This document shows, in pieces, positions 28,812-50,769 of a DNA stretch of 64,000 bases (position 1 is the stretch's first letter; each line of letters starts with the position of its first letter). A program made the position numbers and the translations under genes. The DNA is taken from NCBI GenBank assembly GCA_000002445.1, contig CP000071.1, positions 416,001 through 480,000 on the forward strand, in the 5' to 3' direction. Under the pieces are notes generated by a model that was not told the origin of the DNA, did not search any database, and saw nothing but the letters and a program-made list of their open reading frames with translations. The stretch is from Trypanosoma brucei (lineage: Eukaryota).

Positions 28812-29050
28812 ACTATACAATCCCCTTATAACTTATGAATACTAGAACCCTCCACAAAAATAATAATTAATTCAAAAAAAAATACGGGTGCCCGCCGCGA
28901 TGGGGTTACAAACCGAAGTACTCCAAGGAAGACCGTTCGTTCAAGGAAACACGTGGAACGTTAATACGTTATGAACGAACATACAAGTCTAAACCAACGG
29001 TCAGAACGCAGTTGAGATTTGTCGTATAACAAAAGAGAGTAAAAGAAACA

Positions 29051-31095: not shown

Positions 31096-34000
31096 AATAT
31101 TGGTTCAATTTTGTTTCTTTTTTGACTTCACTAACTAACCCCTTTTCCACTTGATGAGGTGGGTTCAGGAGCTCAAACCAAGAAAGCCATCAACTGGAAA
31201 CACGATTGGCGCATATCATGAAGGTAATGTGTTTGAAAAAGATGGTAAATCGAAAAGCCATACACCTATCAAGTTCGAGACGGACTGTCACCAGCTGGAG
31301 TTATAAATAACTCAATAGGCGCCAAAGTAGAAAAAAAGGATGGACGCGTGGAATTGAGGAAGTGACCCGAACGTAATTGCTTCGGTGTCCGTGTAAACAT
31401 CCTGTCTACAGAATTATTAACAGAGCTTCGACACTTATCTGGATCCCCTTGCTTGATACACGTAACAACTGCTGTTATTCGATAACGGGTACTCACGTTA
31501 ATTTGTTTTGTTTCTGCTCGATAAAGTGTGCTCTTTTTTCATGTCCTACAAATCTAAATAAAGACCAATGTGCTTTACCTGTTTACGTTAGCCATCTTAC
31601 AAATGAAATGCAAAAGAAACTTTGCATGTTATCATCAGTCACCATTACCGACAGAACAGTTGAAACTACGTGATATGACGATACAGCGCATGAGTCATAC
31701 TTTTTCTATTGTAAAGCAAGCAGCGAAACGTACAATATCATAGTCTAAAAATTTACTTCAAAGGAATTTGAAGATGTATTTCGAATCTGAACAACGATGG
31801 GGGATCAAAAAGACTTCTTGATTAGTTAAATATTAAGACTGTTCAACAGCTACGTAAGAAGCAGGAGCTTTTGTGGATGCCCATTCTCTCCCCCGATTCG
31901 TAGGGTTAACAAGAAGAGGGTCGATCCGCATGGTGTAGTAAATCCCTTTATCAGCAGTTGTTGACTTGAGATGGACCGCATTTACTCACAAGTACATAAA
32001 TTTGGATAGTTGAACGATCTGCTGTCACGATGGGACATTAGTTCACATGTAACGAACGTCCCAGGATAACGACAACAAACGTGGGTCCGTGAAAAAACGA
32101 GTTTTATACTGAGCGAAAGAATGTGCGTACATATCATCAGCATGAAATTATGTCCGACTCTCGTACAACTGACTATTTGGATGCGCCGCGGTTATACATA
32201 TCCTCATCGAAATTTCTAAAGGGAGAGAACGGCTGGATCAGTGGCATGAAAATATTTGCAGCTTGTAGTGGGACGGAATGGCAATACTTCGCCCACAATG
32301 CTTGGCTTTGAAGGTCGTCATAACAACGGGAAACTGTTAGGAGAGCCTAGCTCAATCAAACCAATGTAAATTAAGGCGGTGTGCTGATACGCCTGCGCAG
32401 CGTACGGCCTTCTGAATATATACTTTTTAATTTCACTGTGTGGACACTGAGCAACTCACCATAGACGACTAGTTTACTTCGAGTCGTGTTAGCATTATGA
32501 GGCGCCCTTCATTCTCTAGCCAGGTTATGTGGAGCAAAAACAAAAGCAACTGGGGGAGAAGTATGAAGGCGAAGTTTGGTGCTAGAACAGTATCAAATAC
32601 AGTCGCGACGTTTGCGTCGGTTGCGCGCCAAAAACAGAAATTATATCATGCTAATAAACACTACTTAGCGGAAACGTCAGTATGACAGCGTGTCGACGTT
32701 CCCGATGCGCGGGTAGACGGGATCGCCGTCAGATCGATTCCAGAAGAATCCCATCATTTACGTTCGGGGAAACTAAGACTCTGTTGACATGACGGTACGG
32801 GGAATTGTGCGAAAGGGTACTGAGTTTGCAGCGTCTTTCCTCTGTGAGAGCTGGGTTGCGTATTCACCCTCACGGCAGTGGTGAGGAATCAGAGCACCTA
32901 ACAGAGTGACCACCCTACTTCAGATACCAATACTACAAAAAAAGAAAAAGCAGGTATGTGAGAAGTGTCGATAAGAGTAACTTCCATATTTTTGCTTGAA
33001 GTTGAACATTGCGTCACATATGCACTTCTGGGAAGAACCCATACCTTTGTGAACCAACACAAACCGTGAGCAGTACTTTCAGACGTGGTGGGTGCATCCC
33101 CGGCACTGTTTTCTATTGTACGCCGCACAATAAGTAGCACCCCACCGAGCTACCAAATGCAGAACTGCGGCGGATCATCACGGACGAAAACACCAAAACG
33201 GCGTATGAATTCGCATTGCCTGGGCCCAGTAAACGCTGCAACCCATGGAGTCCTTTGATTCTTCCTTTGGAAATGTATAGAGGGGTGGAAACACTTGTTG
33301 CAGCTCTACTGCCCGGTTTGGGGTACGCCTCTGGTGTGAAGAAATAAACGGGTCGGGTTGGGAGCTTTCCATAGCGCGGTAAAAAACCATGACAGCTTCG
33401 TGTTAGTCGCTGCTCTCAGTACCGTTTAGCACAAAAGCCCGCTGTGGTGACGAACGCCCTCCAGGGCCATATGCGCCAGCATATACATGTTGTACTAACT
33501 CTTCTCGCTTCTATTGTAGCGGACATACACCCCATCTAGATTGATTCCATGCTTGGAAGTTCCGTGCATCAGCACGCCTGCGGCGTAGTATGACCTCTCC
33601 CTCTGCGCATTTGAGGGCGAACAAAAAATAGTTACAAAGCGTCAATGCTGACGCTCCTGGGCAGTGACTTGGAGGGGCGTCACTTTGGTAAGGGGCCGGT
33701 CTGCTTCTGATGGCTCGTTGTACCGCTGACGGATATGTGATTGAACATATGGTGACCGTTCTGTCGAACTGTAGGGCTTCTGTTTCTGAAAGATGATACT
33801 TCATACCACGGCAACTCTCGGGGGATAGCTTCTTATTGAGCCGGCCTCTGGTGTGGAGAGTTACTCCCCTTTTTTTCTGTCTTGGTGACAGAAGTGCGGT
33901 GCGTCCACTGTGGCAGTTGTGCACTGTATCGTACCTGAGTCTGGATGGGTAGAGGAATGATGTGCGGGAGCGCTTTCTCTGTTGCTTATGTGCTCGGCTT

Positions 34001-37000
34001 CGTACTGCCTTTTGACTGGGAAAGTCGGTGTTTGGAGTGTGCTGCCGTACTTTGGACGGTGGGGATTCTACTGTCCCGCGGCTTAACAAAAAAAAAAATC
34101 GTACGGTGGCACAGTCCCTGCCCACTACGGTGGATTTATGCGGTCATTACAGGGCAAAGGGTTTCTGGTTTGGATGCAGCGTGTCGCCGCTGTGTGCGCG
34201 TCGCAAACCTACTAAACGTTGTCACTTCAGCGCTACACAACGCGTAAGCCAACGCACGCAGGAAACACTTCTCATCATCTCCACTGTGTTTCCGCGGTCC
34301 TTTGCTTACCTTAGAGGGCGTGTCACGGTAGAATTTGTTGATGTGGTTCGCAATCTAATGAACTTGTCAAAAATGCTTAGCGGGGGCTGTTTTAGGGTTT
34401 GAGACAGGGGGTCAGGTGCGGTTTTAAGTTCTGTATCGTATCTTAATCGGCGTGGCATCCCGCTCTGACCTCTGTTCCGCATCCATTTCATGCGTTTCGC
34501 CTCATCTTCTTTAGCGGCGCACGCCTCCCTGGTATTGTCATGCAGGTGCCTTATTCCGCCCTGTGCGTCCCCGCCCCAAAAACGGAGCATAGCGCTATTG
34601 GCGCCTCTCTTGAAATGGCTTATCGACTCTTCGAAGCTTCCACCCATGTGAACCTGTTATCTCTTGCAACAATGCGGGTGCGCACACCTCCCCTCAAACT
34701 CAGCAGCATACCTTCTGTGGTGGGTTTCCGGCTCCAAGTTATTTCCGCAGAGTATGTGTGTGTTTAGTTGCATCAAGTGCGCCTTGTGTCGTCGTTTTGC
34801 CGGGGCGATGGTGTCGACCATTCACCCCACGTCCAGCTGCAGTTTTCTTTGGAGACTCACTCTTCGGTACGCAGCACGAGTTACATGCAAACGGCGAACA
34901 GACACAGGCGCGTAGCGTTCGAACGCGAAGGGGATCACTCATGTCCACTGCGCCAGGACCTGTCCCCTACGTCTCGAGAAATGAGCAAAAATCGACGAAG
35001 AGAAAGGCTTTTTGTTTGTGGTGCTTTCCTGCGCGTACGAAGCTACTCACTTTGGGAAGCCCACGTAGTATGACAACGCTGTCTTTCCGGTGCCTAAACG
35101 TCGTCGCTCAAGTCCCCTGATGGACGTTACCATCGCAATGCTAAGTGTGGCTGGTATATCTTAGTTAACTCTTCCTTCGGATGAAACTGCAGCCAGCTCC
35201 TCTTTTCGCATCATATGCGCTTCACCCCACAATATCGCACCATGCCACCGGGGTTTCATGGGAGAAATGACGTGGAATGGCAGATTGGGTGAAGGGTCAG
35301 GAAGGCATGACTCTTTCTGTGGCGGCGTATAGTGTTGATGTTTGGAAAGTTCTGCATGATCAGTCGATATCCTATACCCAGGTGCTGTGGGCGCAACGAA
35401 TGCCAGGGGCGATGGAGAGTGGAAATATCAGTTTGTGTTCACCGCCGTGCTCTTCCTCTGAGAGAAGGTGCCACAAAGCGCAGATCATCAATACTTCAAC
35501 GAAGAGAAGATAAGCTCAGTTTGAAGCGGCCGCCGAGTGTCGGCCGAGTGGTGATATCAAAATATCCCCCTACCCCACACTCCCTGCTTTCTTGGTGATT
35601 TAGCTCCGCAGCCACTCCGCCGAAACCTAATTCCGGTGGAGCGGAACGTTGACAGTTTGCCTCCCGTACCCAAAGGACTGCGAGACCTGGACACAACACT
35701 GAGGCGATAGGCATCGCCAGGAGAAAAGGCATTTGTCTTAGTTATCACTGCGTTTGGTTGGGGAAAGGGCGTGTTCCCAGTGCGGTGCTACCCAAGGCAC
35801 TTTTGTAGAACGCTGCTCATCGTTTGCTGTGCTTATCAAACCCGCCCCCTTACAAGCGAATGCCCACCAATCGGAGCCAGGGGCTGCAGGATCTCAAACC
35901 ACGTCGGCCGAAAGGTGGGGAACGCATTTCAAGGGATCACGACGCCGTTCGCTTGGAGACTTGTAACAGCGGGGGTTCAATGCCAAAAAGTTGCTCAGCG
36001 ATGCCTTTCTTAACCGACCGGAACGTCACAGAACATGAAACAGCGGCAGCGGCGCGTAGTGGTTGGCGAATAATAATAACCCCACCCCATTTTTAACATC
36101 TTTAGCAGTCCTCTCTGGGGCTATGGCTGCCAGGCGCCAACGATTTCACTATGAAGAACGGTTGTGAGGCTCGAAGTTAGTGTTTGTGAGTGTTTGAACC
36201 TCTTCGGCACGCTTCCGCACCCGGGATGAGGCAGAATAACCAGTGTGCCCACGGTGACAAAATGGCGGGACGTCGGCACAAGAGGCGGTTAAGGGATGCC
36301 AAATCGCCTGTCAAAACTAGTCGTTTTTTTTAAACCAAGGGTGCATCTCACTGAGGCCGACCAAGTGGCAGTGACGAGCCCCTTTACGAAGGCGCATTTA
36401 CCACAATGGTCCCTAAAAGAGGGCGCTAGCACACCCAAATACCAGCACCACCGAACTATAAGGCATCGATCAAACACTTTTTTGGCTGGTGGGAGCTTCT
36501 TGCCATCGACAGCTACGCCCCAGCCCACAAAGGTTTTTAAGGTAAATCCAGAAACGTTGGAAACGGGTACATTGTGCGAAGTACACGAGGAGGTCGTGCA
36601 CGCAGCCGTCGCACCGCGAGAGTTAAGGGCCTCACCTACAGATGGAGGACGACAAAAACAAACTTGCGGGAACCGGCTTTCCCAGATCGTCACAGTACGC
36701 GGGGCACGGAAAGCGAGTGCGCCGGAATGTCGGATGATGTTCAACCAGTGACCTCTCATCCACTTTGTGGAGCCCATTTGTCAGCGGCTTTATTGCCCAA
36801 CCGACCACACAACACCAATCCAAGGGTGGCACCTCCTTGCCCACTTCCGAGATGAAGACTACCACTTATAACAACGACCCTTTCCCTAAACCACCCTTGG
36901 TTTCCCAACACACGCACCTCCGAGGACATAAGCTAGGAAAATACAACCACCAATGTGCCGCACCCGGCAATACCACGGCATACCTACAAATATTCCAAGA

Positions 37001-38109
37001 CCTTCTGCATATCTGAACGAATAGCTGCCAGGTTGGACGCCCCAAAGGGCGGAAGTGCATCACACCACGAGGCACGCAACCTCTCGACACCAGTGCTGAA
37101 AAGCACAACCCTGTTGCCGGCACTTGCAAACCAACTGGTGTCACCACAAGCACTTCGACGAGCTGGTTTAAAAAAATCCGGCCAGCCGTCCGACAACACC
37201 TTTAAACATGAAGGGGGACGTCATGCCGCATCCATCAGTTAGAACATTTAGACAAAACATTGGGTTATTTGTTAAAAATAGATCCACAACAGCATAGTTA
37301 AAGTATAAACAAAAGATCGCCAAATACAGATTTTGGAGGGAAAACTTCGCGATGCACAAACATCAGAAACAACAGAGCTCCACACACACTCTTCAAACCA
37401 CTTCACAGTCAGCGCACCAGCGTCACATCGCAACCGTCACCCCTCCAATTGGGCATAACCCCGCTACAAACAACAATAAATTACCAGCCGCACGCGTACA
37501 AGATAAAACAACGACAACGATCACATATCACGCACTTCGACCGATCCCCACAAATCCGAAAAAAAAAAAATTACCTAAGCATATTCATTTAAAAACATGC
37601 AACAAAGAAACAAGTAAAATAAAACAATCACACAAGAGATCGCCCAATAACAGAAAAAAACGAAAATAATAATTCGATAACATCATTTAAATATCAAAAC
37701 AAAAAGGAAAAATAAACAAATAATTCAAAAGAATAATATATATAACAATTCCGATGCACATCTATTATTCCATACAAAAGGGTAGGAAAGCAAGTTATGA
37801 AGTTTCCCTGCCTCCTTCCCCATTTTTCCCTCCTTCCTTGCTGTCGTGTTGTCAGCCCTGTGCGCAAAAATTACCGTTATTGTATATGAGATCGGCCATG
37901 GTGGTAGCAACTTTTTCTGGGAGTATGGTCAGTGTGTGTTTCCTCTTGTATTTGCTTGTGTTTATGCGTGTGTGTGTTTGTGCTGGTGCCGAAGGGAGAG
38001 AAGGGGAACTTTTAACGGCAACCAGACAGTGAAGAAACTTAGAAACGGACGATTGGCATAGATTTAACACAAGTTGAATGACGGCTGCAGCTCTAGGAAA
38101 AAAGTTTGG

Positions 38110-38229
38110 GAGAGTACAACACCCCGGGTTCCAGCGCCATCACTGATCGCCGTACTAACGAGGCCTGTGGCCGCTTAACTTCACAAATCGGACGGGATAT
38201 GGTGCATTCGGCCAAGTATGGTCGTACCC
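38110..38229 (-). rRNA. 5S: 5S ribosomal RNA, copy 1
   Basis: The reverse complement reads GGGTACGACCATACTTGGCCGAATGCACCATATCCCGTCCGATTTGTGAAGTTAAGCGGCCACAGGCCTCGTTAGTACGGCGATCAGTGATGGCGCTGGAACCCGGGGTGTTGTACTCTC. This carries the conserved 5S blocks (CCATAC, CCGTCCGAT…GAAGTTAAGC, GGCCTCGTTAGTAC…) and matches the trypanosome 5S as I recall it. It is followed on the minus strand by TTTTTT (plus 38097-38102), a pol III terminator. Confidence 0.9.
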
Positions 38230-38844
38230 GACGTCCGGTAAACCGAATGCGTGCATTTATTCCGATACCCGTCAAACTTGTTCATGAGGGATTTGAAGTG
38301 TAGGAGACGCGAAAAAAAAAAAAAGAAAAGAAGAAAAGCACCTTTCTTACCACTCCATACCATCCCCCCTCCAGTACCTACAGACACCATTTCCATCACA
38401 CTACACGACACTAAAAAGTGGAAGAAAACATAACTTTCCTCTGAGTCCGGAGGGGGGGGGGTTGGGGGCGGATGAAACAGCCGTTCCGATGCACATCTAT
38501 TATTCCATACAAAAGGGTAGGAAAGCAAGTTATGAAGTTTCCCTGCCTCCTTCCCCATTTTTCCCTCCTTCCTTGCTGTCGTGTTGTCAGCCCTGTGCGC
38601 AAAAATTACCGTTATTGTATATGAGATCGGCCATGGTGGTAGCAACTTTTTCTGGGAGTATGGTCAGTGTGTGTTTCCTCTTGTATTTGCTTGTGTTTAT
38701 GCGTGTGTGTGTTTGTGCTGGTGCCGAAGGGAGAGAAGGGGAACTTTTAACGGCAACCAGACAGTGAAGAAACTTAGAAACGGACGATTGGCATAGATTT
38801 AACACAAGTTGAATGACGGCTGCAGCTCTAGGAAAAAAGTTTGG

Positions 38845-38964
38845 GAGAGTACAACACCCCGGGTTCCAGCGCCATCACTGATCGCCGTACTAACGAGGCC
38901 TGTGGCCGCTTAACTTCACAAATCGGACGGGATATGGTGCATTCGGCCAAGTATGGTCGTACCC
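38845..38964 (-). rRNA. 5S: 5S ribosomal RNA, copy 2
   Basis: Identical to copy 1 at a +735 offset; the landmark 'agagtacaac' is verified at 38846-38855. Confidence 0.9.
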
Positions 38965-39580
38965 GACGTCCGGTAAACCGAATGCGTGCATTTATTCCGA
39001 TACCCGTCAAACTTGTTCATGAGGGATTTGAAGTGTAGGAGACGCGAAAAAAAAAAAAAAGAAAAGAAGAAAAGCACCTTTCTTACCACTCCATACCATC
39101 CCCCCTCCAGTACCTACAGACACCATTTCCATCACACTACACGACACTAAAAAGTGGAAGAAAACATAACTTTCCTCTGAGTCCGGAGGGGGGGGGGTTG
39201 GGGGCGGATGAAACAGCCGTTCCGATGCACATCTATTATTCCATACAAAAGGGTAGGAAAGCAAGTTATGAAGTTTCCCTGCCTCCTTCCCCATTTTTCC
39301 CTCCTTCCTTGCTGTCGTGTTGTCAGCCCTGTGCGCAAAAATTACCGTTATTGTATATGAGATCGGCCATGGTGGTAGCAACTTTTTCTGGGAGTATGGT
39401 CAGTGTGTGTTTCCTCTTGTATTTGCTTGTGTTTATGCGTGTGTGTGTTTGTGCTGGTGCCGAAGGGAGAGAAGGGGAACTTTTAACGGCAACCAGACAG
39501 TGAAGAAACTTAGAAACGGACGATTGGCATAGATTTAACACAAGTTGAATGACGGCTGCAGCTCTAGGAAAAAAGTTTGG

Positions 39581-39700
39581 GAGAGTACAACACCCCGGGT
39601 TCCAGCGCCATCACTGATCGCCGTACTAACGAGGCCTGTGGCCGCTTAACTTCACAAATCGGACGGGATATGGTGCATTCGGCCAAGTATGGTCGTACCC
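39581..39700 (-). rRNA. 5S: 5S ribosomal RNA, copy 3
   Basis: Identical at a +1471 offset; the landmark is verified at 39582-39591. Confidence 0.9.
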
Positions 39701-40316
39701 GACGTCCGGTAAACCGAATGCGTGCATTTATTCCGATACCCGTCAAACTTGTTCATGAGGGATTTGAAGTGTAGGAGACGCGAAAAAAAAAAAAAAGAAA
39801 AGAAGAAAAGCACCTTTCTTACCACTCCATACCATCCCCCCTCCAGTACCTACAGACACCATTTCCATCACACTACACGACACTAAAAAGTGGAAGAAAA
39901 CATAACTTTCCTCTGAGTCCGGAGGGGGGGGGGTTGGGGGCGGATGAAACAGCCGTTCCGATGCACATCTATTATTCCATACAAAAGGGTAGGAAAGCAA
40001 GTTATGAAGTTTCCCTGCCTCCTTCCCCATTTTTCCCTCCTTCCTTGCTGTCGTGTTGTCAGCCCTGTGCGCAAAAATTACCGTTATTGTATATGAGATC
40101 GGCCATGGTGGTAGCAACTTTTTCTGGGAGTATGGTCAGTGTGTGTTTCCTCTTGTATTTGCTTGTGTTTATGCGTGTGTGTGTTTGTGCTGGTGCCGAA
40201 GGGAGAGAAGGGGAACTTTTAACGGCAACCAGACAGTGAAGAAACTTAGAAACGGACGATTGGCATAGATTTAACACAAGTTGAATGACGGCTGCAGCTC
40301 TAGGAAAAAAGTTTGG

Positions 40317-40436
40317 GAGAGTACAACACCCCGGGTTCCAGCGCCATCACTGATCGCCGTACTAACGAGGCCTGTGGCCGCTTAACTTCACAAATCGGAC
40401 GGGATATGGTGCATTCGGCCAAGTATGGTCGTACCC
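40317..40436 (-). rRNA. 5S: 5S ribosomal RNA, copy 4
   Basis: The repeat offset of +2207 is inferred from the track-ORF periodicity. Confidence 0.85.
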
Positions 40437-41052
40437 GACGTCCGGTAAACCGAATGCGTGCATTTATTCCGATACCCGTCAAACTTGTTCATGAGGGATT
40501 TGAAGTGTAGGAGACGCGAAAAAAAAAAAAAGAAAAGAAGAAAAGCACCTTTCTTACCACTCCATACCATCCCCCCTCCAGTACCTACAGACACCATTTC
40601 CATCACACTACACGACACTAAAAAGTGGAAGAAAACATAACTTTCCTCTGAGTCCGGAGGGGGGGGGGGTTGGGGGCGGATGAAACAGCCGTTCCGATGC
40701 ACATCTATTATTCCATACAAAAGGGTAGGAAAGCAAGTTATGAAGTTTCCCTGCCTCCTTCCCCATTTTTCCCTCCTTCCTTGCTGTCGTGTTGTCAGCC
40801 CTGTGCGCAAAAATTACCGTTATTGTATATGAGATCGGCCATGGTGGTAGCAACTTTTTCTGGGAGTATGGTCAGTGTGTGTTTCCTCTTGTATTTGCTT
40901 GTGTTTATGCGTGTGTGTGTTTGTGCTGGTGCCGAAGGGAGAGAAGGGGAACTTTTAACGGCAACCAGACAGTGAAGAAACTTAGAAACGGACGATTGGC
41001 ATAGATTTAACACAAGTTGAATGACGGCTGCAGCTCTAGGAAAAAAGTTTGG

Positions 41053-41172
41053 GAGAGTACAACACCCCGGGTTCCAGCGCCATCACTGATCGCCGTACTA
41101 ACGAGGCCTGTGGCCGCTTAACTTCACAAATCGGACGGGATATGGTGCATTCGGCCAAGTATGGTCGTACCC
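41053..41172 (-). rRNA. 5S: 5S ribosomal RNA, copy 5
   Basis: Repeat offset +2943. Confidence 0.85.
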
Positions 41173-41788
41173 GACGTCCGGTAAACCGAATGCGTGCATT
41201 TATTCCGATACCCGTCAAACTTGTTCATGAGGGATTTGAAGTGTAGGAGACGCGAAAAAAAAAAAAAGAAAAGAAGAAAAGCACCTTTCTTACCACTCCA
41301 TACCATCCCCCCTCCAGTACCTACAGACACCATTTCCATCACACTACACGACACTAAAAAGTGGAAGAAAACATAACTTTCCTCTGAGTCCGGAGGGGGG
41401 GGGGGTTGGGGGCGGATGAAACAGCCGTTCCGATGCACATCTATTATTCCATACAAAAGGGTAGGAAAGCAAGTTATGAAGTTTCCCTGCCTCCTTCCCC
41501 ATTTTTCCCTCCTTCCTTGCTGTCGTGTTGTCAGCCCTGTGCGCAAAAATTACCGTTATTGTATATGAGATCGGCCATGGTGGTAGCAACTTTTTCTGGG
41601 AGTATGGTCAGTGTGTGTTTCCTCTTGTATTTGCTTGTGTTTATGCGTGTGTGTGTTTGTGCTGGTGCCGAAGGGAGAGAAGGGGAACTTTTAACGGCAA
41701 CCAGACAGTGAAGAAACTTAGAAACGGACGATTGGCATAGATTTAACACAAGTTGAATGACGGCTGCAGCTCTAGGAAAAAAGTTTGG

Positions 41789-41908
41789 GAGAGTACAACA
41801 CCCCGGGTTCCAGCGCCATCACTGATCGCCGTACTAACGAGGCCTGTGGCCGCTTAACTTCACAAATCGGACGGGATATGGTGCATTCGGCCAAGTATGG
41901 TCGTACCC
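41789..41908 (-). rRNA. 5S: 5S ribosomal RNA, copy 6
   Basis: Repeat offset +3679. Confidence 0.85.
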
Positions 41909-42524
41909 GACGTCCGGTAAACCGAATGCGTGCATTTATTCCGATACCCGTCAAACTTGTTCATGAGGGATTTGAAGTGTAGGAGACGCGAAAAAAAAAA
42001 AAAGAAAAGAAGAAAAGCACCTTTCTTACCACTCCATACCATCCCCCCTCCAGTACCTACAGACACCATTTCCATCACACTACACGACACTAAAAAGTGG
42101 AAGAAAACATAACTTTCCTCTGAGTCCGGAGGGGGGGGGGGTTGGGGGCGGATGAAACAGCCGTTCCGATGCACATCTATTATTCCATACAAAAGGGTAG
42201 GAAAGCAAGTTATGAAGTTTCCCTGCCTCCTTCCCCATTTTTCCCTCCTTCCTTGCTGTCGTGTTGTCAGCCCTGTGCGCAAAAATTACCGTTATTGTAT
42301 ATGAGATCGGCCATGGTGGTAGCAACTTTTTCTGGGAGTATGGTCAGTGTGTGTTTCCTCTTGTATTTGCTTGTGTTTATGCGTGTGTGTGTTTGTGCTG
42401 GTGCCGAAGGGAGAGAAGGGGAACTTTTAACGGCAACCAGACAGTGAAGAAACTTAGAAACGGACGATTGGCATAGATTTAACACAAGTTGAATGACGGC
42501 TGCAGCTCTAGGAAAAAAGTTTGG

Positions 42525-42644
42525 GAGAGTACAACACCCCGGGTTCCAGCGCCATCACTGATCGCCGTACTAACGAGGCCTGTGGCCGCTTAACTTCACA
42601 AATCGGACGGGATATGGTGCATTCGGCCAAGTATGGTCGTACCC
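42525..42644 (-). rRNA. 5S: 5S ribosomal RNA, copy 7
   Basis: Repeat offset +4415. Confidence 0.85.
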
Positions 42645-43259
42645 GACGTCCGGTAAACCGAATGCGTGCATTTATTCCGATACCCGTCAAACTTGTTCAT
42701 GAGGGATTTGAAGTGTAGGAGACGCGAAAAAAAAAAAAAGAAAAGAAGAAAAGCACCTTTCTTACCACTCCATACCATCCCCCCTCCAGTACCTACAGAC
42801 ACCATTTCCATCACACTACACGACACTAAAAAGTGGAAGAAAACATAACTTTCCTCTGAGTCCGGAGGGGGGGGGGTTGGGGGCGGATGAAACAGCCGTT
42901 CCGATGCACATCTATTATTCCATACAAAAGGGTAGGAAAGCAAGTTATGAAGTTTCCCTGCCTCCTTCCCCATTTTTCCCTCCTTCCTTNCTGTCGTGTT
43001 GTCAGCCCTGTGCGCAAAAATTACCGTTATTGTATATGAGATCGGCCATGGTGGTAGCAACTTTTTCTGGGAGTATGGTCAGTGTGTGTTTCCTCTTGTA
43101 TTTGCTTGTGTTTATGCGTGTGTGTGTTTGTGCTGGTGCCGAAGGGAGAGAAGGGGAACTTTTAACGGCAACCAGACAGTGAAGAAACTTAGAAACGGAC
43201 GATTGGCATAGATTTAACACAAGTTGAATGACGGCTGCAGCTCTAGGAAAAAAGTTTGG

Positions 43260-43379
43260 GAGAGTACAACACCCCGGGTTCCAGCGCCATCACTGATCGC
43301 CGTACTAACGAGGCCTGTGGCCGCTTAACTTCACAAATCGGACGGGATATGGTGCATTCGGCCAAGTATGGTCGTACCC
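43260..43379 (-). rRNA. 5S: 5S ribosomal RNA, copy 8
   Basis: Repeat offset +5150; the landmark 'agagtacaac' is verified at 43261-43270. Confidence 0.9.
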
Positions 43380-43987
43380 GACGTCCGGTAAACCGAATGC
43401 GTGCATTTATTCCGATACCCGTCAAACTTGTTCATGAGGGATTTGAAGTGTAGGAGACGCGAAAAAAAAAAAAAGAAAAGAAGAAAAGCACCTTTCTTAC
43501 CACTCCATACCATCCCCCCTCCAGTACATACAGACACCATTTCCATCACACTACACGACACTAAAAAGTGGAAGAAAACATAACTTTCCTCTGAGTCCGG
43601 AGGGGGGGGGTTGGGGGCGGATGAAACAGCCGTTCCGATGCACATCTATTATTCCATACAAAAGGGTAGGAAAGCAAGTTATGAAGTTTCCCTGCCTCCT
43701 TCCCCATTTTTCCCTCCTTCCTTGCTGTCGTGTTGTCAGCCCTGTGCGCAAAAATTACCGTTATTGTATATGAGATCGGCCATGGTGGTAGCAACTTTTT
43801 CTGGGAGTATGGTCAGTGTGTGTTTCCTCTTGTATTTGCTTGTGTTTATGCGTGTGTGTGTTTGTGCTGGTGCCGAAGGGAGAGAAGGGGAACTTTTNAC
43901 GGCAACCAGACAGTGAAGAAACTTAGAAACGGACGATTGGCATAGATTTAACACAAGTTGAATGACGGCTGCAGCTCTAGGAAAAAA

Positions 43988-44047
43988 NNNNNNNNNNNNN
44001 NNNNNNNNNNNNNNNNNNNNNNNNNNNNNNNNNNNNNNNNNNNNNNN
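43988..44047. other. Assembly gap (60 N) inside the 5S array
   Basis: A run of N. The expected position of the next 5S copy (about 43996-44115) falls inside it. Single N calls also occur at 42990 and 43898. Confidence 0.95.
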
Positions 44048-44409
44048 GTTCCGATGCACATCTATTATTCCATACAAAAGGGTAGGAAAGCAAGTTATGA
44101 AGTTTCCCTGCCTCCTTCCCCATTTTTCCCTCCTTCCTTGCTGTCGTGTTGTCAGCCCTGTGCGCAAAAATTACCGTTATTGTATATGAGATCGGCCATG
44201 GTGGTAGCAACTTTTTCTGGGAGTATGGTCAGTGTGTGTTTCCTCTTGTATTTGCTTGTGTTTATGCGTGTGTGTGTTTGTGCTGGTGCCGAAGGGAGAG
44301 AAGGGGAACTTTTAACGGCAACCAGACAGTGAAGAAACTTAGAAACGGACGATTGGCATAGATTTAACACAAGTTGAATGACGGCTGCAGCTCTAGGAAA
44401 AAAGTTTGG

Positions 44410-44440
44410 GAGAGTACAACACCCCGGGTTCCAGCGCCAT
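44410..44440 (-). pseudogene. Truncated 5S rRNA fragment (3′ terminal ~31 nt) at the array boundary
   Basis: The sequence 'gagagtacaacaccccgggttccagcgccat' matches the 3′ end of the 5S gene and then diverges abruptly at 44441 ('ctcgcataaagacgg…'). Confidence 0.7.
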
Positions 44441-44466
44441 CTCGCATAAAGACGGAAAGGGATTCT

Positions 44467-44700
44467 CTTCCACATTACCGGAGAGCAGCATCTTATTGCG
44501 GATGATACTGCTGACAGCACGCTGGCACGTGCCCAGGGACCGAAAAATGAAAAACAGTGTCCCAACAAGACGCTGCTGATCCCTGTGCTGTATGATGCCG
44601 TATCCGGAGCAAAGCAGTGTTCCCCATGAAAGGAACGCTGCTGGCTCTTGGCTTCAGCCGATGAAAGTGGGTACTGGACCCTGGCACTCGTTGAGGTTGG
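44467..44700. repeat. Inverted-repeat arm A (~234 bp)
   Basis: The reverse complement of 44467-44700 aligns to 45941-46173, with a ~190 bp core at about 97% identity and about 90% overall. I checked this base by base over the core. Confidence 0.75.
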
Positions 44701-45940
44701 CGGCGTCGGCAGGGTATTCGCGAGCAAAACACCACAGAAGGTGAGGTGGTCGGCAACCTAAAAGGAATCATTACTCAAAGAAAATAACGCCTTGGGGCTG
44801 CCCGATGGACTCGCCCTTTCGGGTCGATGGTTGCGTATGAAAACCGTTTCTCCTTTCATATCGATCCTTTGCTGCGTATGCGGAGCCGAAAACGCCGAGG
44901 GGCCACCCTTGCAACATCCGTCAATTGCGCGCACATATATTACGGCAAATGTCCCACATCCCCGTTATGGATCAGTTTGCACATATTATCGATTCCACAG
45001 CAAATCCTTGGTCGATTAAGGCGTGTTGGCTTTGCATCGCGGCATTATGAATGAGTATTACGTATCCGCGTTGGCAGAAATTAGTGCACGCACAGAGCGT
45101 CTTGGCCAGCAAGCAGCGGTGATAAATTTGGGTCGATGAGTGTTGGACGTGATGGTCTTGCGGCTACAGAAGATTGTGGCGATAAGCGAGATCAAACAAG
45201 CAAGTCCCTTAACTAAAGGTCGGAATGGCTCAGATTATTACTTTTTGCTCGGATTGGAAGGAGTGTGTGGTTTTTGCGTTTGGTGTGGATTACGACAAGT
45301 CGTCTGCTGGAGATCCCGGCACTGATACGGAAGCATTTCTAATGGAACAGGGACAGTGTAGTGCCCCTCGATTGGTTGGTGACACCCAAGACAGCCAAGT
45401 CCAATTCACACCGAGCAAGTCGTTAAGTTCGCATTCGGGGATTAGGACGCTCTCGATATTACGCGACTACTCTCCACTTTGAAGCTCAAGGAACATGTAA
45501 CAACGCTCACAACAACCAAAGTCGAACATATTCTCGCTCCGTGGGAGATGATGACGCACCCCGTTAGGAGAGGAGGCTTTACAGCATGCTGCAGGCACAA
45601 TTTGTGGAAGAGCATGGCATGGATCCTCACATTATTTTCCAACCAATGAAACACATCTATCCGTTCCGCATGCCGAGGAACACTGTCAGCCACTTGGACA
45701 AATGCACCGCCATGTTGACTAATATGTAGAATAGTGTCCCTATGGTGTAAGCCATGTCTTAGACGAAGGATAAGAGCCATGGGAGCCGCCAGGGCGTTGT
45801 CCCTTCAAGACGCACGGTTATACGATAACAAGGAGGGCGCACGCCACACGCCTGTTGAATACGCAGGACAAGGCTTCCATTCCTTTACAGCAAGTGCACG
45901 TCCCGCTGCTGGAGATATATTGAATCCCCTGGCGATGCCG

Positions 45941-46173
45941 GCCACCTCAACGTGGTGCCAGGGTCCAGTACCCCGTATCACCGGGGAAAGCAAGAGCCAG
46001 CAGCGTTCCTTTCATGGGGAACACTGCTGTGCTCCGGCTACGGCATCATACAGCACAGGGATCAGCAGCGTCTTGTTGGGACACTGTTTTTCATTTGTCG
46101 GTCCCTGGGCACGTGCCAGCGTGCTGTCAGCAGTATCATCCGCAATAAGATGCTGCTGTCCGGTGATGTGGAA
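45941..46173. repeat. Inverted-repeat arm B (~234 bp)
   Basis: Partner of arm A across a 1,240 bp spacer. Both arms are spanned by look-alike track ORFs (the 191-aa minus ORF and the 182-aa plus ORF share …KSQQRSFHGEHC…ASYSTGISSVLLGHCFSF.GPWARASVLSAVSSAIRCC.PVMW…). Confidence 0.75.
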
Positions 46174-48032
46174 CTCCAAAAAAGGATTGCTAATTGACAT
46201 CTTTGGGAGAGTCCAGGGTGGGGGGCTTCTCGCCCCATCTGCTGTATTCCGTTCATCTGCGGAAATACAACAAGAGTTATAGAGGGTGTGTTAGGATGAA
46301 TAAAAAAAGGGAGGCTCTGCCACAGTTGCCAGACCGATAGCATCTCAGGGCTCTACGGTGATGGCTGATGGCCGCGCCAGTGGGGGGAAACTTTCACGAA
46401 GGCACGAAGAAAATTCCAAAAAAAAAATATTGAATCATTTCTCGCTTAAATTCGAGTGTGAAATGTAGATTTCAACATCTCTGGGGACTGATCGGAATGA
46501 GACCAAAAGGGACCAGTGAAAGGAGCCCTCATGTTATTTCCATCGGCGATGATCGTCTACTTTGGAAGGTCGGTATCGTAAAGGATGCCTCCTCCGCACC
46601 AACAGGAGCTCGGGTCATCCCTTTTCTCAGTTGCAGAGGATAAACCCTCCAACGAGCGTCGCTGGTGAATTGCGGGGCCTAAAGAGAAATAACAAAAGCG
46701 GATGAACCTTACGAGGCAATTGTTCCTTTTGGAACACATTTCAAAATACCTCCATGCGGTTACTATCCTGAGTTGTCGACTTTTTCTGTCTGTTTTTTTT
46801 ATTTTTTCTTAGAGGCGTTACGTCGTCGTCTTTTGCCTCGGACAGAGAACTTGTCCCCGCCACAGAGGCCGCTTTGTTGCCACTGTCCGCACTTGGTTTA
46901 GTAAGTGGGTATTACTTTCTTGCCTGTTTAAAAAGAAGAAACGCACGGTTACACCCAATTGGGAACCCGCAGTTGATTTGGTCACAGATGGCTCTTTGAG
47001 GGGTTGTGGGTCTGGGGCATGTCTTCTTATTGGATTCCGGTGAGGTGAAAGTAATGTTATGTGGTGTCGTTGGTTTAAGTTCCCTTTTCTTATCATGCAG
47101 GCTCAGGCCCGTGTCCTCTGACTCTCCTCAGTAGCATTCGTGGAATCCTTTCCCCCTGAGTATTGACATTTGGGTTGATAATACATTCCTGTAAGGCGCG
47201 GAACCAAAAGGAAACACAAAAGCCTACGGTCTTTCTGTGGCCATGGATGAGATGTTTATGATATTTGATTTCCACAACATTAGCACAAATTACTCGTTTA
47301 ACCGCTCCGTCAGCAAACCGGCGGTCGGCTCCCGCGGAGGCACACGGTTAAACTGTGCAAAGTTGGTGAAAGAGTTTAACTGACAAAAGGAAGTGGCGGT
47401 GTCCCGAGGCTTTTGGGGACCACAAGAACTGCCCTTTCACAGGTCTACTGTGAAATAAATATTCCGCTGCTGCTTGCCACCCAAGTTTGTGTCAGATGGG
47501 TATTGATGATTATATATGGTTATACATTTAGTTTATAATTCCTTGCTCCTCGCTTTAATTATATTTAATAAGTTGACCATTCGAACCGCACCGAAACTCG
47601 TATTTTTAAAAGATTTGTTTTCACTCGTCTTGGGGTTTTGTAGATTTTTTTGTATTTACACTCCTTTTTATTCGTTTCAAAGTCGATAATTCTGTTGATT
47701 TTCAATTTAAATGTTGTAAAAGTATTTTTTCTCTTAAATTTATGAGATTCTTCCGTGGAGCTTCAGTTTTTTCTTTGTTATTTGTTTTGTCTTTTATACC
47801 TAAAAATATTTGGAGAGAATCAGTGTGTTTGTGTTTTTTTGTGTAATATTTACCCATATATTTCAGTGGGGAGATTACAGAAGTAATATATATATATATA
47901 AAAGATCCTTTGTATTGCTTATGTGCTTTGTCTTTAAGCGGTTGTTGCTTTTCCTTTTTAACATATATTTTTGAAACATGATTTGGCCACATATTTTTTA
48001 TATTAGTTTTATTTAAATATTCTGTAGATTGA

Positions 48033-50366
48033 ATGGCACGTAATAAGGCTCACAAGCAGAGGTTTGCATCTAAACGTGCTGTTTCGGGTTTGGCAAAGGG
48101 ACGCACTATTCCAACGAAAAAGGAGAGTGTAAAAGCGCTTCATCCGTTGGAGGCCAAAGAGAGATCAAGGCAGTCTTTAGCTGCCCTGCGGGACAAGAAA
48201 AGGGCCAATGCCCTTCAACAAAAGAGAATCGGGAAAATATCCGGGTTGCCTCGGGCTGTTGGTGTTCTACCAGCAAATGAATCGGCTAACACGAACGCGG
48301 TCATTCGGGGCTTGTGCTTTTCTTTGGGGAGTGAAGTTCGTGACACTTGCCTCCCGTTCACTGCAAGTTCGAAAGAAAAGAAGGCATCTTTTACATTTAT
48401 GTCAGAGCGGAATGGCAATCTTCAGAGTTGTGTTGACATCGGTAAGGTCGCTGACTTTTTGGTGTTAGCACTGGATGTCTCGCGATCCGTACAGGAAATG
48501 ATACGTAACGTGCAAGAATCTATGGAAGTAGAAGATTGTGATGATGTTGGCTCCGTTGTGGCTACTACATGGTACGGAGATATTGGTCTTTGTATCACTG
48601 CGTTCACAAGAGAGCTGATTGCAGCTCTTAATGCCCAAGGGGTGCCGAGTGTAGCTGTAGTACTGCAAAATCTTGATACGTTCACTGAAAAGCAGCGTCA
48701 TAAAGTTATTAAGGTTCACCAGCGTTACTTTTTATCTGTTCTCCCTGAAACGACGAAGGTATTTACTGTGATTGATCAGGGTGACTATGACCCGGTGCTT
48801 CGGCATCTCCATGTCGCTAAACTTCGTTCACTAGCATGGCGTGATCAACATCCGTATTTGATAGTGGAGGAGGGATATTTTGATGATGATGCTCAAAAAC
48901 TTGTCGTAGGTGGTTACCTTCGTGGCATGGCACTCTCGGCCGAGCAATTGATTCACCTCACAAACCACGGGACGTTTCAGATTGAGAACATATGCCGGGG
49001 GGACCCAAGGGGTGATGAAGCCCAGGTTATTGATTCGTGTGAGAAGGCACACAGAGAGTCACTTGACTACGTTCAAGTGAATGCCACTCTTGACGATGCA
49101 GACGGACCAACTGAGGAAGATATTGCCTATCACAAATCAATAGGATTCAAAAAGGTCAAAGTTCCAGAGGGTGTATCTGATTACCAGGCAGCATGGTATG
49201 AATTCGAGGGTAGTGATATAAACTCGGAGACAGATATTGGTGAATCGGTACCGGGGGACGATGAGTATGCTGCGTCTGATCACTTTTCTCAGGGGACTTT
49301 AAGAACAACAGTTGACTTTCTTAAGGTGGAGGATGTAATTCGTTTGGAGCGGATGAACGACGACGAACGAGCTGCGGAAATACAGAGACTTAAAGAGGAG
49401 AGTGAAGAAGATGCGTGGAATCCAGATATTGTAGACACACCTTTCAATCTACCAGCAAGGCAAAGATTTATGAAATATCGCGGACTCAAGAGCTTCCAAA
49501 CGGGTAAATGGGACGCGGCGGAGAATCTCCCGCCACATTACGCTTATATTTACAAGTTACAGGGCATAACCCGCATTCGTGAGGCAGCGCTAGCGAAATG
49601 CGCCAGTGGAAGTGTCGCAACTGAGCAATTTGTGTATATAACACTCGTGGATGTTCCAAGTAAGGTCTGGAGAAGCGCTGTCGAAGGCGGTTGCATTATT
49701 GCATCGGGTCAGCTGGAGCATGAGCAGAAATGGTCAGTCCTTCACTTTAGGATTCAAAGGAGCTCGGATTGCGATGAACCAATTAAGTCAAAAATACCTA
49801 TGCTCGCTCATATAGGTTTTAGGAAGTTTTACGTGTCACCCATCTTCAGTGACATTACTACCTCAGATCGTACGAAGTTTGCCCGCTTTTTTCATCCAAA
49901 CGAAAAATTTTGTATGGCGAGTTTTTTTGGCCCTATATCGTATCAGCCTTGCCCTATTCTTTTGTTTGAAGTTCCGTCACTGGAGGAGCAGAATGAGGAC
50001 AATTCATTGCATTTGGCTTGCTTTGGAGGGGCACTACCGCCAAATCCAGACCTGTTGGTGCTCAAGCGTGCGGTACTGACGGGAAGAGTAGCGACTATTC
50101 ACAAAAAACAAATTGTAGTCAAATACATGTTTTTCAACGACGAGGACGTGCAGTGGTTTCAATCTGTGGACCTTCGCACTCGGTTGGGGAGACGTGGGAA
50201 AATAATAAAGGCTGTGGGAACTCGTGGGCTGTTTAAAGCATCCTTGAACGATCAGGTAATGCAGCATGATCTTGTTTGCATGGATCTTTATAAGCGTGTC
50301 TTCCCGAAGTGGACAACTTTGCCGTTTTGCATTTCGGATGTTCCGAAAGTTGTTGCCGAAGAGTAG
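48033..50366 (+). CDS. TSR1: Ribosome biogenesis protein TSR1 (pre-40S GTPase-like factor, Bms1/Tsr1 family)
   Basis: 777 aa, ATG confirmed. N-terminal MARNKAHKQRFASK… is followed by blocks that line up with yeast Tsr1 as I recall it: IGKVADFLVLALDVS against CAKVADFVVFGLS, and AWRDQHPYLIVEEGYFDD against NWRDNRGYVVADFVD. The C-terminal region is the AARP2CN/DUF663 type. Confidence 0.85.
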   Translation: MARNKAHKQRFASKRAVSGLAKGRTIPTKKESVKALHPLEAKERSRQSLAALRDKKRANALQQKRIGKISGLPRAVGVLPANESANTNAVIRGLCFSLGSEVRDTCLPFTASSKEKKASFTFMSERNGNLQSCVDIGKVADFLVLALDVSRSVQEMIRNVQESMEVEDCDDVGSVVATTWYGDIGLCITAFTRELIAALNAQGVPSVAVVLQNLDTFTEKQRHKVIKVHQRYFLSVLPETTKVFTVIDQGDYDPVLRHLHVAKLRSLAWRDQHPYLIVEEGYFDDDAQKLVVGGYLRGMALSAEQLIHLTNHGTFQIENICRGDPRGDEAQVIDSCEKAHRESLDYVQVNATLDDADGPTEEDIAYHKSIGFKKVKVPEGVSDYQAAWYEFEGSDINSETDIGESVPGDDEYAASDHFSQGTLRTTVDFLKVEDVIRLERMNDDERAAEIQRLKEESEEDAWNPDIVDTPFNLPARQRFMKYRGLKSFQTGKWDAAENLPPHYAYIYKLQGITRIREAALAKCASGSVATEQFVYITLVDVPSKVWRSAVEGGCIIASGQLEHEQKWSVLHFRIQRSSDCDEPIKSKIPMLAHIGFRKFYVSPIFSDITTSDRTKFARFFHPNEKFCMASFFGPISYQPCPILLFEVPSLEEQNEDNSLHLACFGGALPPNPDLLVLKRAVLTGRVATIHKKQIVVKYMFFNDEDVQWFQSVDLRTRLGRRGKIIKAVGTRGLFKASLNDQVMQHDLVCMDLYKRVFPKWTTLPFCISDVPKVVAEE

Positions 50367-50769
50367 CAATTCTAAATTTAAGGACGCTGGTGGGAGGGTA
50401 GCTTTCTTTTTTTTAAATAGTGGGTCGCATTAACAGGCAATGAAGTAACTAGTCGTTTAATCAGACTTTATTTGCTTAACCATCATTAGCTAAGTTAGAA
50501 AATTTCCCCCAGATAATACATTCGTGTTTATTTATTTGGATGTTCAATTTTTGCACTTGTCCCAACTTTCAAGTTAATCTGTAGTAAGGAGAAGGAGGGG
50601 GAGAATACTTAGATATTTTTTCCACCTTGAAAGGCATAACTTTTATCCTTTTGTGGGCAATCTCGACCAACATATACATAGGAAGGCAGATAAGTTTCAC
50701 TGTTAGAACAGTATCAATTAAGGGGTTAGCGTGGGAGAGAAACATTCGAATCAAAAAAAAAAAAAGGAA

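Follow-up and report, generated by a model that had tools for sequence, protein, structure and literature searches.

The analysed window is a 64,000-nt stretch of Trypanosoma brucei DNA (contig CP000071.1), most likely from chromosome 8 of T. b. brucei TREU927, and all coordinates refer to it. It holds a tandem array of 5S rRNA genes whose last member is cut mid-gene and, 26 nt further on (44442-44467), the first arm of an inverted repeat. The two arms, A (44468-44719) and B (45922-46173), form a 253-nt inverted alignment with 92.1% identity (E = 4e-101; BLASTN of the region against the whole window) and are separated by 1202 nt (44720-45921). The repeat search of the window returned the same structure as three collinear inverted segment pairs, 44468-44655/45986-46173 (188 nt, 96%), 44651-44687/45955-45991 (81%) and 44689-44719/45922-45952 (84%), which BLASTN merged into the single alignment; no third copy of the arms was found in the window by BLASTN. 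Both searches confirm the inverted repeat that the original prediction placed beside the truncated array. Of the arm limits proposed there (44467-44700 and 45941-46173), the outer ends stand and the inner ends were set about 19 nt short. The features of the locus, with the assignments argued for below, are:

37750-44441, minus strand: tandem array of 5S rRNA genes with a repeat unit of about 736 bp; eight of the genes, at 38111-43379, are complete (Rfam RF00001, 89 bits per copy)
44411-44441, minus strand: last 5S gene, truncated; its 3'-terminal 31 nt (GATGGCGCTGGAACCCGGGGTGTTGTACTCT) are kept, followed by the normal T-run
44428-44441, minus strand: ingi/5S junction with imperfect microhomology (ingi GATGCAGTGGAAC, 5S GATGGCGCTGGAAC), where both homologies overlap
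44428-44714, minus strand: probable 5'-terminal fragment of an ingi non-LTR retroposon, about 287 nt, starting with CCCTGCCG (44714) and matching an ingi locus (L009)
44442-44467, minus strand: probable ingi-specific stretch past the RIME half-junction, with remnant 2A-like NPGP codons; absent in RIME B
44468-44719, minus strand: arm A; ingi nt 1-247 plus five flanking nt (GAATA)
44638-44714, minus strand: Pr77/79-bp signature of the ingi fragment; exact GTGCCAGGGTCCAGTACC at 44670-44687
44715-45926, no strand: 1.2-kb spacer between the elements, with no recognisable gene; its right-hand 45915-45926 is the RIME duplication copy (10-12 nt)
45917-45926, plus strand: target-site duplication of RIME, upstream copy (ATATTGAATC); extended to a 12-mer starting at 45915, it matches at 11 of 12 positions
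45922-46173, plus strand: arm B; RIME nt 1-247 plus five flanking nt (GAATC)
45927-46003, plus strand: Pr77/79-bp signature of RIME; exact GTGCCAGGGTCCAGTACC at 45955-45972
45927-46427 (body 45927-46426), plus strand: complete RIME, about 500 bp, starting with CCCTGGCGATG and ending in ten A (46418-46427)
46174-46426, plus strand: RIME 3' half (ingi 3' end), outside the inverted repeat, from the alignment with two RIME copies (L001, L002)
46427-46436, plus strand: downstream copy of the target-site duplication (ATATTGAATC)

Retroposon sequence in the two arms

Tbingi is a 5.25-kb autonomous non-LTR retroposon of the ingi clade, and TbRIME (ribosomal inserted mobile element) is its 0.5-kb non-autonomous partner in T. 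brucei. RIME corresponds to ingi without the central 4.7 kb (PMC2323293; PMC3447711). Arm B corresponds to nt 1-247 of a RIME that runs 253 nt past the arm. This element matches, over its full length, two RIME copies of about 500 bp on T. b. gambiense DAL972 chromosomes, L001 (10025-10530, 94%) and L002 (10045-10553, 92%), each of which has its own poly(A) and a target-site duplication of about 12 bp. Copy B likewise ends in a run of ten A and is flanked by a duplication of 10 bp (or 11 of 12), the last A of the run (46427) being readable equally as the first base of the downstream duplication copy. Its upstream flank agrees with the ingi4 insertion motif (PMC3820030) at 7 of 10 positions; among random 34-mers, 0.4% attain this score. 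At 500 bp it has the size of TbRIME, and it follows L009 through its first 247 nt and diverges exactly where the ingi-only sequence starts. The signature CCCTG...GTGCCAGGGTCCAGTACC opens both copies (two matches, 0.08 expected), and its layout in RIME is that of the signatures in the supplement of PMC4035085. The short ORF of copy B is frameshifted by the loss of 1 nt at element nt 65. On these features arm B is assigned to a complete non-LTR retroposon RIME. SIDER1 and SIDER2 were rejected as the family; past the signature, TbSIDER1 and TbSIDER2 (PMC4035085 supplement), compared by eye, are unrelated to the arms. With regard to an HDV-like ribozyme of the L1TcRz type in Pr77, no ribozyme family of Rfam matched even at E <= 10; the pseudoknot of such a fold lies beyond MFE folding. 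Ribozymes of this type have a nested double-pseudoknot fold and cleave themselves just upstream.

Arm A matches the ingi locus L009 (7132-7420) over 290 nt at 88% (BLASTN), reaching window position 44428, whereas the match of RIME B to L009 spans 249 nt only. Arm A extends 39 nt past the RIME half-junction in ingi-only sequence, the codons of the 2A-like peptide (ENPGPSLRGMQWN). These 39 nt encode ENP(G>F)PSLRGMQWN, that is, the 2A-like peptide and the next residues, as in the proteins P0063 and P0064, the second of which is named 'Tbingi protein' by its source. The copy A peptide reads ...SGN(V/M)EENPFPSL(CE/RGMQWN), and the arm A translation runs ...SSIIRNKMLLSGNVEENPFPSLCE as compared with ...SGDVEENPGPSLRGMQWNCAGL in ingi (P0062, P0063, P0064). 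A search of all representative proteins with the arm A peptide returned two proteins, with P0062 among them, and led to the ingi 5' end; P0062 itself had no Pfam match. The counterpart of 44442-44467 in DAL972 and T. b. equiperdum is ENPFPSLRGMQWN. A MAFFT reading of these 26 nt as pieces of the RIME 3' half was dropped, as the same 26 nt match ingi contiguously. The 2A-like sequence lies in the ingi N-terminal region, just upstream of the endonuclease domain (PMC3708506). The 39 extra nt are probably ingi sequence, judged by three short annotated proteins and one truncated DAL972 locus (L009), itself a short 5' fragment of ingi that runs into stop codons some 75 codons in.

Copy A keeps its 2A-like NPGP motif as a mutated remnant (G>F, D>N), has no ATG, carries a 1-nt deletion and a stop codon, and in this strain has a private cluster of substitutions at element nt 48-61 of its signature. 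The long ORF of Tbingi, with endonuclease and reverse transcriptase, is absent, about 287 nt remaining before the 5S junction. By these defects copy A is judged to be a dead ingi fragment, not a functional member. The outward ORF that had been drawn over the arms is a frameshifted reading; the true frame of the element is the one encoding the 2A-like peptide. The upstream flank of copy A agrees with the ingi4 insertion motif at 3 of 10 positions in the expected register. Its 3' end is deleted, and the poly(A) and 3' target-site duplication went with it; because this duplication is lost, the ingi insertion is not reconstructible.

The inverted repeat is thus very likely two separate ingi/RIME retroposon copies lying head to head next to the 5S rRNA genes. 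The length of the arms is explained by the fact that 247 nt is exactly the stretch common to ingi and RIME, and as two ordinary retroposon copies the arms would be mobile-element debris, not a new hairpin or terminal-inverted-repeat element. Further copies elsewhere in T. brucei genomes bear out the expectation that the arms are dispersed mobile-element sequence. A single mobile element with terminal inverted repeats (a DNA transposon or foldback element), whose insertion cut the 5S gene, had been suggested by the architecture, with inverted arms of about 250 nt around a 1.2-kb core beside a truncated gene. It is almost certainly not what lies here, as the arms are the outward-reading 5' ends of non-LTR retroposons, the homology of arm B continues to the poly(A), the duplication flanks B alone, and arm A runs on in ingi-only sequence. 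There is no duplication around the whole unit, the outer flanks GGAAAGGGATTCTC (left) and CTCCAAAAAAGGAT (right) sharing no repeat, and no transposase lies between the arms: the largest spacer ORFs (75-112 aa) have no Pfam match and none is transposase-like. The spacer has no second copy in the window (BLASTN) and no Rfam match; Rfam returned the 5S genes and chance-level matches only (gathering scores over the whole window; E <= 10 over 44300-46400), and ARAGORN no tRNA. All further copies that were found are lone RIME or ingi ends and none is the composite, and DNA transposons are reported absent from trypanosomatid genomes (PMC2323293). A second possibility is that one RIME 5' half was duplicated in inverted orientation to form a palindrome, for instance when the broken 5S array end folded back during repair; this would account for the outer ends of both arms falling at the same element position, nt 247. 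However, nt 247 is the ingi/RIME deletion junction, so a shared end there is expected of an ingi-RIME pair. Arm A also has the 39 nt of ingi sequence absent from B, six A/B differences (element nt 10, 17, 27, 28, 113 and 240) are fixed in all three strains compared, and the target-site duplication of B is intact, so that B inserted on its own; an inverted duplication is accordingly very improbable. What was first read as a terminal-inverted-repeat element or palindrome is better described as two separate insertions, of different non-LTR retroposons, that face opposite ways.

The junction with the 5S rRNA genes

That the 5S array is real and cut mid-gene is borne out by Rfam and by comparison with the full unit: the last unit is identical to it up to 44441, where the identity stops. 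The left edge of the array was read from the sequence; TRF gave no 5S array because its period limit was 500. A five-way alignment of ingi, 5S and the junction from three strains places ingi (...GGGATGCAGTGGAAC|TGCGCC) and 5S (...GTGATGGCGCTGGAAC|CCGGGG) against the junction, which in DAL972 and T. b. equiperdum reads ...GGGATGCAGTGGAACCCGGGG. The ingi fragment and the 5S 3' end meet in a microhomology, TGGAAC (6 nt perfect, or 13-14 nt imperfect); as far as sequence can tell, a fusion of this kind marks a microhomology-mediated deletion. In the window the 5S-like tract extends 8 nt beyond its limit in DAL972 and T. b. equiperdum, which leaves the exact crossover ambiguous and means that one lineage was secondarily converted. 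In LINE-type elements it is usually the 5' end that is lost, through incomplete reverse transcription. The ingi fragment lacks its 3' end instead, which indicates a later deletion. Of the earlier proposal that an inserting element cut the 5S gene, the link to an element holds, and the insertion as cause gives way to a deletion that joined ingi to 5S at the microhomology.

It should also be considered whether the assembly joined 5S repeats to collapsed ingi/RIME reads. The array contains an assembly gap of 60 N (43988-44047) at a distance of 394 nt from the junction, and this gap and two single Ns fall within 1.5 kb of the junction; both sequence classes are also multi-copy. However, the junction and the arms occur as well in T. 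b. gambiense DAL972 (chromosome 8) and on a T. b. equiperdum chromosome, loci which were reached through the DAL972 and equiperdum cluster members of the window's TSR1 protein. The architecture there is the same, window 44048-50400 being collinear with both at 97.8%, and the junction is contiguous in all three assemblies, with strain-specific differences within the junction itself, which means independent sequence data. An artefact, which the original prediction had named as a ground for giving up the repeat, is highly improbable for an arrangement common to assemblies of three T. brucei subspecies.

Divergence of the arms and the hairpin question

The three assemblies, two of which are nearly identical at the locus, are a small sample for comparing the divergence of its parts. 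Between the window and DAL972, arm A has diverged by 8.5% and arm B by 4.0%; the RIME 3' half stands at 6.3%, and the unique spacer at 2.6%, the same as the downstream unique DNA. Both arms are frameshifted and diverge faster than the unique flanks, in agreement with the earlier view that they are not under protein-coding constraint. At element nt 200, 201 and 220 both window arms share derived bases, and all six other sequences agree on another base (expected coincidences 0.074, P = 6e-5). In T. b. equiperdum, arm B has the arm-A-lineage states at nt 72, 90, 160 and 162; arm B of DAL972 still shows the RIME consensus at these sites. These short shared-derived tracts indicate gene conversion from arm to arm; the shared derived sites could in principle come instead from selection for pairing or from consensus errors in the assembly of multi-copy repeats.

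Selection for pairing would be expected of a hairpin locus in which read-through gives a double-stranded RNA stem of about 250 bp, cut by Dicer-like enzymes into siRNAs against ingi/RIME, with arm complementarity kept by selection. The arms co-fold at -488 kcal/mol, as compared with -195 +/- 5 with shuffled partners, both lie in a region flanked by plus-strand genes, and three sites changed jointly in both arms. In T. brucei, siRNAs are known to arise from long inverted repeats, and 52% of AGO1-bound small RNAs come from ingi/RHS-class sequences (PMC3447711). On the other hand, the arms of the window and of DAL972 differ at 31 points, of which only 6 are matched (the three sites, in both arms) and 25 are one-sided, the arms evolve faster than the neutral-looking flanks, and the unpaired RIME 3' half evolves equally fast. 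The seven siRNA inverted repeats on record have 99-100% identity and measure at least 422 bp (PMC3447711); the arms, with 92-94% identity, are both less alike and shorter. A selected hairpin is, on balance, unlikely, and the arms bear no apparent sign of selection. It is similarly doubtful, at about the same level, that the head-to-head ingi/RIME 5' ends act as a standing hairpin siRNA source in a plus-strand polymerase II unit, conserved in three subspecies and kept partly complementary through gene conversion. If this were true, the locus would help prime silencing of the whole ingi/RIME family, a part of the kind that hairpin-RNA and piRNA-cluster loci play in animals.

For the two retroposon copies, the proposed history begins with a full ingi that would once have stood beside the 5S array. 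Repair of a double-strand break by microhomology-mediated end joining would then have deleted some 4.9 kb of ingi together with 88 nt from the start of the 5S gene next to it. Later, short tracts may have been exchanged between the arms by gene conversion, probably also with other ingi/RIME copies, leaving a repeat that presumably has no selected function. RNA polymerase II read-through on the plus strand could give an imperfect hairpin of about 250 bp, a possible by-product source for the ingi/RIME siRNA pool, which is abundant.

Significance and comparison with known systems

The main yield is the removal of a false lead, in that the 250-bp inverted repeat at a broken 5S gene is resolved as two ordinary retroposon copies. 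ingi/RIME is the most abundant retroposon family of T. brucei, and the present reading explains how ingi/RIME pairs give inverted or direct repeats that stop exactly at 247 nt. The locus further offers a clean natural case of ingi fused to 5S through a microhomology, in line with the end-joining pathway that experiments have shown in T. brucei. Its sequence also gives evidence that inverted retroposon ends lying close together exchange short tracts by gene conversion. Current understanding is unchanged.

In T. brucei, chromosomal breaks are repaired by end joining through 5-20 bp of microhomology, and classical non-homologous end joining has not been found (PMC3045614). The microhomology-mediated end joining described there (Glover, Jun and Horn 2011, PMC3045614) resembles the ingi/5S junction in the length of the microhomology and in the tolerance of mismatches; the deletion proposed here, deduced from the sequence, would be about 5 kb or more, as compared with an experimental mean of 284 bp. 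The inverted repeats IR1-IR7 (Tschudi et al. 2012, PMC3447711), members of a siRNA-producing class recognised by near-identical arms of about 400 bp or more and by AGO1-bound small RNAs of 22-25 nt from arms and spacer, resemble the locus in combining an inverted repeat and spacer, in lying in a transcribed chromosome core and in their potential for a long RNA hairpin. However, they measure 422-10,011 bp and are 99-100% identical, whereas the repeat described here is 252 bp long, 92% identical, made of retroposon ends and not among IR1-IR7. Arm A shares with Tbingi the first 247 nt, which are also those of RIME, followed by the ingi-only 2A-like NPGP codons and SLRGMQWN; it differs in comprising only the first 287 nt or so, with a mutated 2A motif and no start codon. 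Copy B shares with TbRIME the length of 500 bp, the 5' 79-bp/Pr77 signature, the poly(A) and a target-site duplication of about 12 bp, and its upstream flank partly agrees with the insertion motif. Its identity of 92-94% to other RIME copies fits the reported median divergence of 4% from the consensus (PMC2323293), and apart from the 1-nt deletion at nt 65 there is no essential difference between copy B and TbRIME.

Structure and setting of the inverted repeat

The original prediction placed a pair of inverted repeats beside the 5S array, and both a repeat search and BLASTN confirmed it. The repeat search found three collinear inverted segments, which BLASTN joined into a single alignment when 44441-46200 was compared with the full 64 kb (44468-44719 versus 46173-45922; 253 columns, 92.1% identity, E = 4e-101), and no third copy of the arm sequence turned up there. 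The arms are 96% identical in the outer 188 nt and 81-84% in the inner ~65 nt, and are separated by a spacer of 1202 nt. An assembly artefact was rejected, since the arrangement is found in T. b. gambiense DAL972 chromosome 8 (L008) and a T. b. equiperdum chromosome (L003). Both align collinearly with window 44048-50400 at 97.8% identity, across the junction, the two arms, the spacer and the duplication of the RIME; strain-specific substitutions are present within the junction. The DAL972 and equiperdum loci also contain 100-N gaps.

Features of the window
1-29 kb, minus strand: dynein heavy chain, two L7Ae-family genes, mitochondrial carrier
30 kb onward, plus strand: F-box protein, TSR1, acyl-CoA dehydrogenase
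38111-43379, minus strand: eight complete 5S rRNA genes (Rfam), spaced about 736 bp
44468-44719, minus strand: arm A
45922-46173, plus strand: arm B, within copy B

The 5S array is oriented opposite to the surrounding plus-strand gene block. Its last unit matches the full unit through 44441, and only the 3'-terminal 31 nt of the 5S gene remain. A 60-N gap (43988-44047) and single Ns at 42990 and 43898 all lie inside the array, so the real number of 5S units is not readable from the assembly. The TSR1-like protein encoded at 48033-50366 has the same sequence as XP_846975.1 of T. b. brucei TREU927 and differs from the equiperdum and gambiense proteins by 1-3 residues, which places the window in T. 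brucei, most probably on TREU927 chromosome 8. Near 30 kb the sign of the GC skew flips, coinciding with a divergent strand switch at 29000-30100, where the minus-strand dynein heavy chain gene ends at 28820 and plus-strand genes start from 30031. The L7Ae/L30e-family ribosomal protein genes form a near-identical tandem pair (12242-13081 and 13328-14158, minus strand; 279 and 276 aa) whose two members score identically in Pfam; each also has a probably spurious antisense ORF of 211 aa. The stretch of about 6.6 kb from the F-box gene to the 5S array (31100-37700) has no ORF longer than 204 aa, the seven ORFs tested there all lacked a Pfam match, and no retroposon signature was found; the final 250 nt ahead of the array are very A-rich.

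Identity of the two copies

The inner ends of both arms begin CCCTG...GTGCCAGGGTCCAGTACC (two exact matches, 0.08 expected). This is Pr77, the 77-79-bp 5' signature common to trypanosomatid non-LTR retroposons (PMC2323293; PMC4035085), and its position at the inner end of each arm implies that the two elements read outward, head to head. When the arm B peptide was used as query in a protein search, two DAL972 ORFs annotated as "T. brucei-specific/unlikely" were recovered. Their loci are ~500-bp elements that align with window 45927-46428 at 94% and 92%, extending 253 nt past arm B. Poly(A) terminates all three, and every copy is flanked by a ~12-bp target-site duplication of its own; for the window copy this is ATATTGAATC (45917-45926 and 46427-46436). 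In the upstream flank of copy B, 7 of 10 positions agree with the insertion motif published for ingi4 (PMC3820030), a value reached by 0.4% of random 34-mers. The full-length matches, poly(A) and duplication together identify copy B as a complete RIME; it has the size, 5' signature, poly(A) tail and target-site duplication expected of that element, and a 1-nt deletion at nt 65. RIME is a 0.5-kb non-autonomous ingi derivative with the central 4.7 kb deleted (PMC2323293; PMC3447711).

Arm A corresponds to the first ~287 nt of an ingi. Its match to RIME ends exactly at element nt 247 (counted from the retroposon 5' end), after GATGTGGAA. In a search of all representative proteins, the arm A peptide recovered a protein, P0062, whose sequence ...SSIIRTKMLLSGDVEENPGPSLRGMQWNCAGLSQGKRLAL is the 2A-like peptide of ingi. 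This peptide has been placed in the ingi N-terminal region, just upstream of the endonuclease domain (PMC3708506). A third protein search linked the 2A-region sequence to P0063 and P0064, the latter named "Tbingi protein" by its source. The P0062 locus in DAL972 (L009) matches arm A over 290 nt (88%) versus only 249 nt for copy B; the additional 39 nt of arm A translate as ENPFPSLCE in the window and ENPFPSLRGMQWN in DAL972 and equiperdum. The RIME half-junction cuts through the 2A codons, ingi having DVE|ENPGP and RIME DVE|LQKRIAN-stop. The length of the arms, 247 nt plus 5 similar flanking nt, is explained by 247 nt being the entire 5' share of ingi and RIME.

Arm A carries the ingi 5' signature and a 2A remnant; the coding body is absent, so copy A is a fragment. 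Its ATG is gone, a 1-nt deletion and a stop codon are present and the 2A motif is mutated; the outward ORF originally pointed out is a frameshifted reading. Both retroposon remnants are dead. A terminal-inverted-repeat transposon, as first proposed, was rejected, as a duplication flanking the whole unit and a transposase are both absent. A second 5'-only ingi copy occurs in DAL972 (L009 7132-7600, FN554973.1), with the signature, the 2A peptide and about 75 codons, followed by stops and unrelated sequence. LINE-type elements are usually 5'-truncated, and 5'-only fragments are the reverse; they may be a recurrent deletion product in T. brucei.

The ingi/5S junction and evolution of the arms

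The junction was compared in a five-way alignment of ingi (...GCGCGGGATGCAGTGGAAC|TGCGCC), 5S (...CAGTGATGGCGCTGGAAC|CCGGGG), DAL972 and equiperdum (...GCGCGGGATGCAGTGGAACCCGGGG) and the window (...ATGCGAGATGGCGCTGGAACCCGGGG). The crossover falls within microhomology of 6 nt (perfect) or 13-14 nt (imperfect). Chromosomal end joining in T. brucei reportedly uses microhomologies of 5-20 bp and tolerates mismatches, with no classical NHEJ found (PMC3045614). A microhomology-mediated deletion would have removed the remainder of this ingi together with the initial 88 nt of one 5S gene. The 5S-like tract is 8 nt longer in the window than in DAL972 and equiperdum. This difference probably arose by conversion at a later stage, either from adjacent 5S units or, in the other lineage, from ingi copies.

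Compared with DAL972, the window diverges by 8.5% in arm A and 4.0% in arm B. The value is 6.3% for the RIME 3' half, which is unpaired, 2.6% for the unique spacer and 2.7% for unique DNA farther downstream.

Both arms exceed unique DNA, so purifying selection on them is absent, in line with the initial view that they are not under protein-coding constraint. Retroposon segments as a class diverge faster than unique DNA, a pattern compatible with ectopic conversion by other copies. The arms differ at six positions that are fixed in all three strains (element nt 10, 17, 27, 28, 113 and 240), indicating independent insertions. At nt 200, 201 and 220 both window arms share derived bases where all six other sequences carry one alternative base (0.074 coincidences expected, P = 6e-5), and equiperdum arm B has arm-A-lineage states at nt 72, 90, 160 and 162, where DAL972 arm B has the RIME consensus. 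Tracts this short and clustered speak for gene conversion between arm A and arm B. Arm A also contains, at 44654-44667 (nt 48-61, within Pr77), a tight cluster of strain-private substitutions (CCCACTTTCATCGGCTG versus consensus CCCCGTATCATCGGGGG), which looks like either a patch converted by a divergent element or a local burst of mutation.

RNA folding and possible function

Co-folded as RNA, the two arms reach -488 kcal/mol versus -195 +/- 5 for shuffled partners, a plain consequence of their 92% complementarity. Sense-strand RNA from the 5' half of the RIME (45927-46173, plus strand; 247 nt) folds at -118 kcal/mol (z = -5.9 versus shuffled controls) into several discrete hairpins, one of which covers codons immediately upstream of the 2A motif. 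In the decayed arm A much of this fold is gone (z = -2.4). No Rfam family besides 5S was matched, and the spacer ORFs (75-112 aa) had no Pfam match.

The best-supported reading is retroposon debris with no function. A plus-strand read-through transcript could form a hairpin contributing to the ingi/RHS-class small-RNA pool. That class makes up 52% of T. brucei AGO1-bound small RNAs, and documented siRNA sources include long inverted repeats (PMC3447711). A selected role of this kind is nevertheless very improbable: the window and DAL972 differ at 31 arm positions, of which just 6 are matched (three sites changed in both arms) and 25 are one-sided, which argues against selection for pairing. 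The observation of the inverted repeat is correct, and the arrangement is an ordinary one of known elements in a well-studied genome. The seven siRNA inverted repeats described in T. brucei, among which this one is not listed, are longer and far more perfect than the arm repeat.
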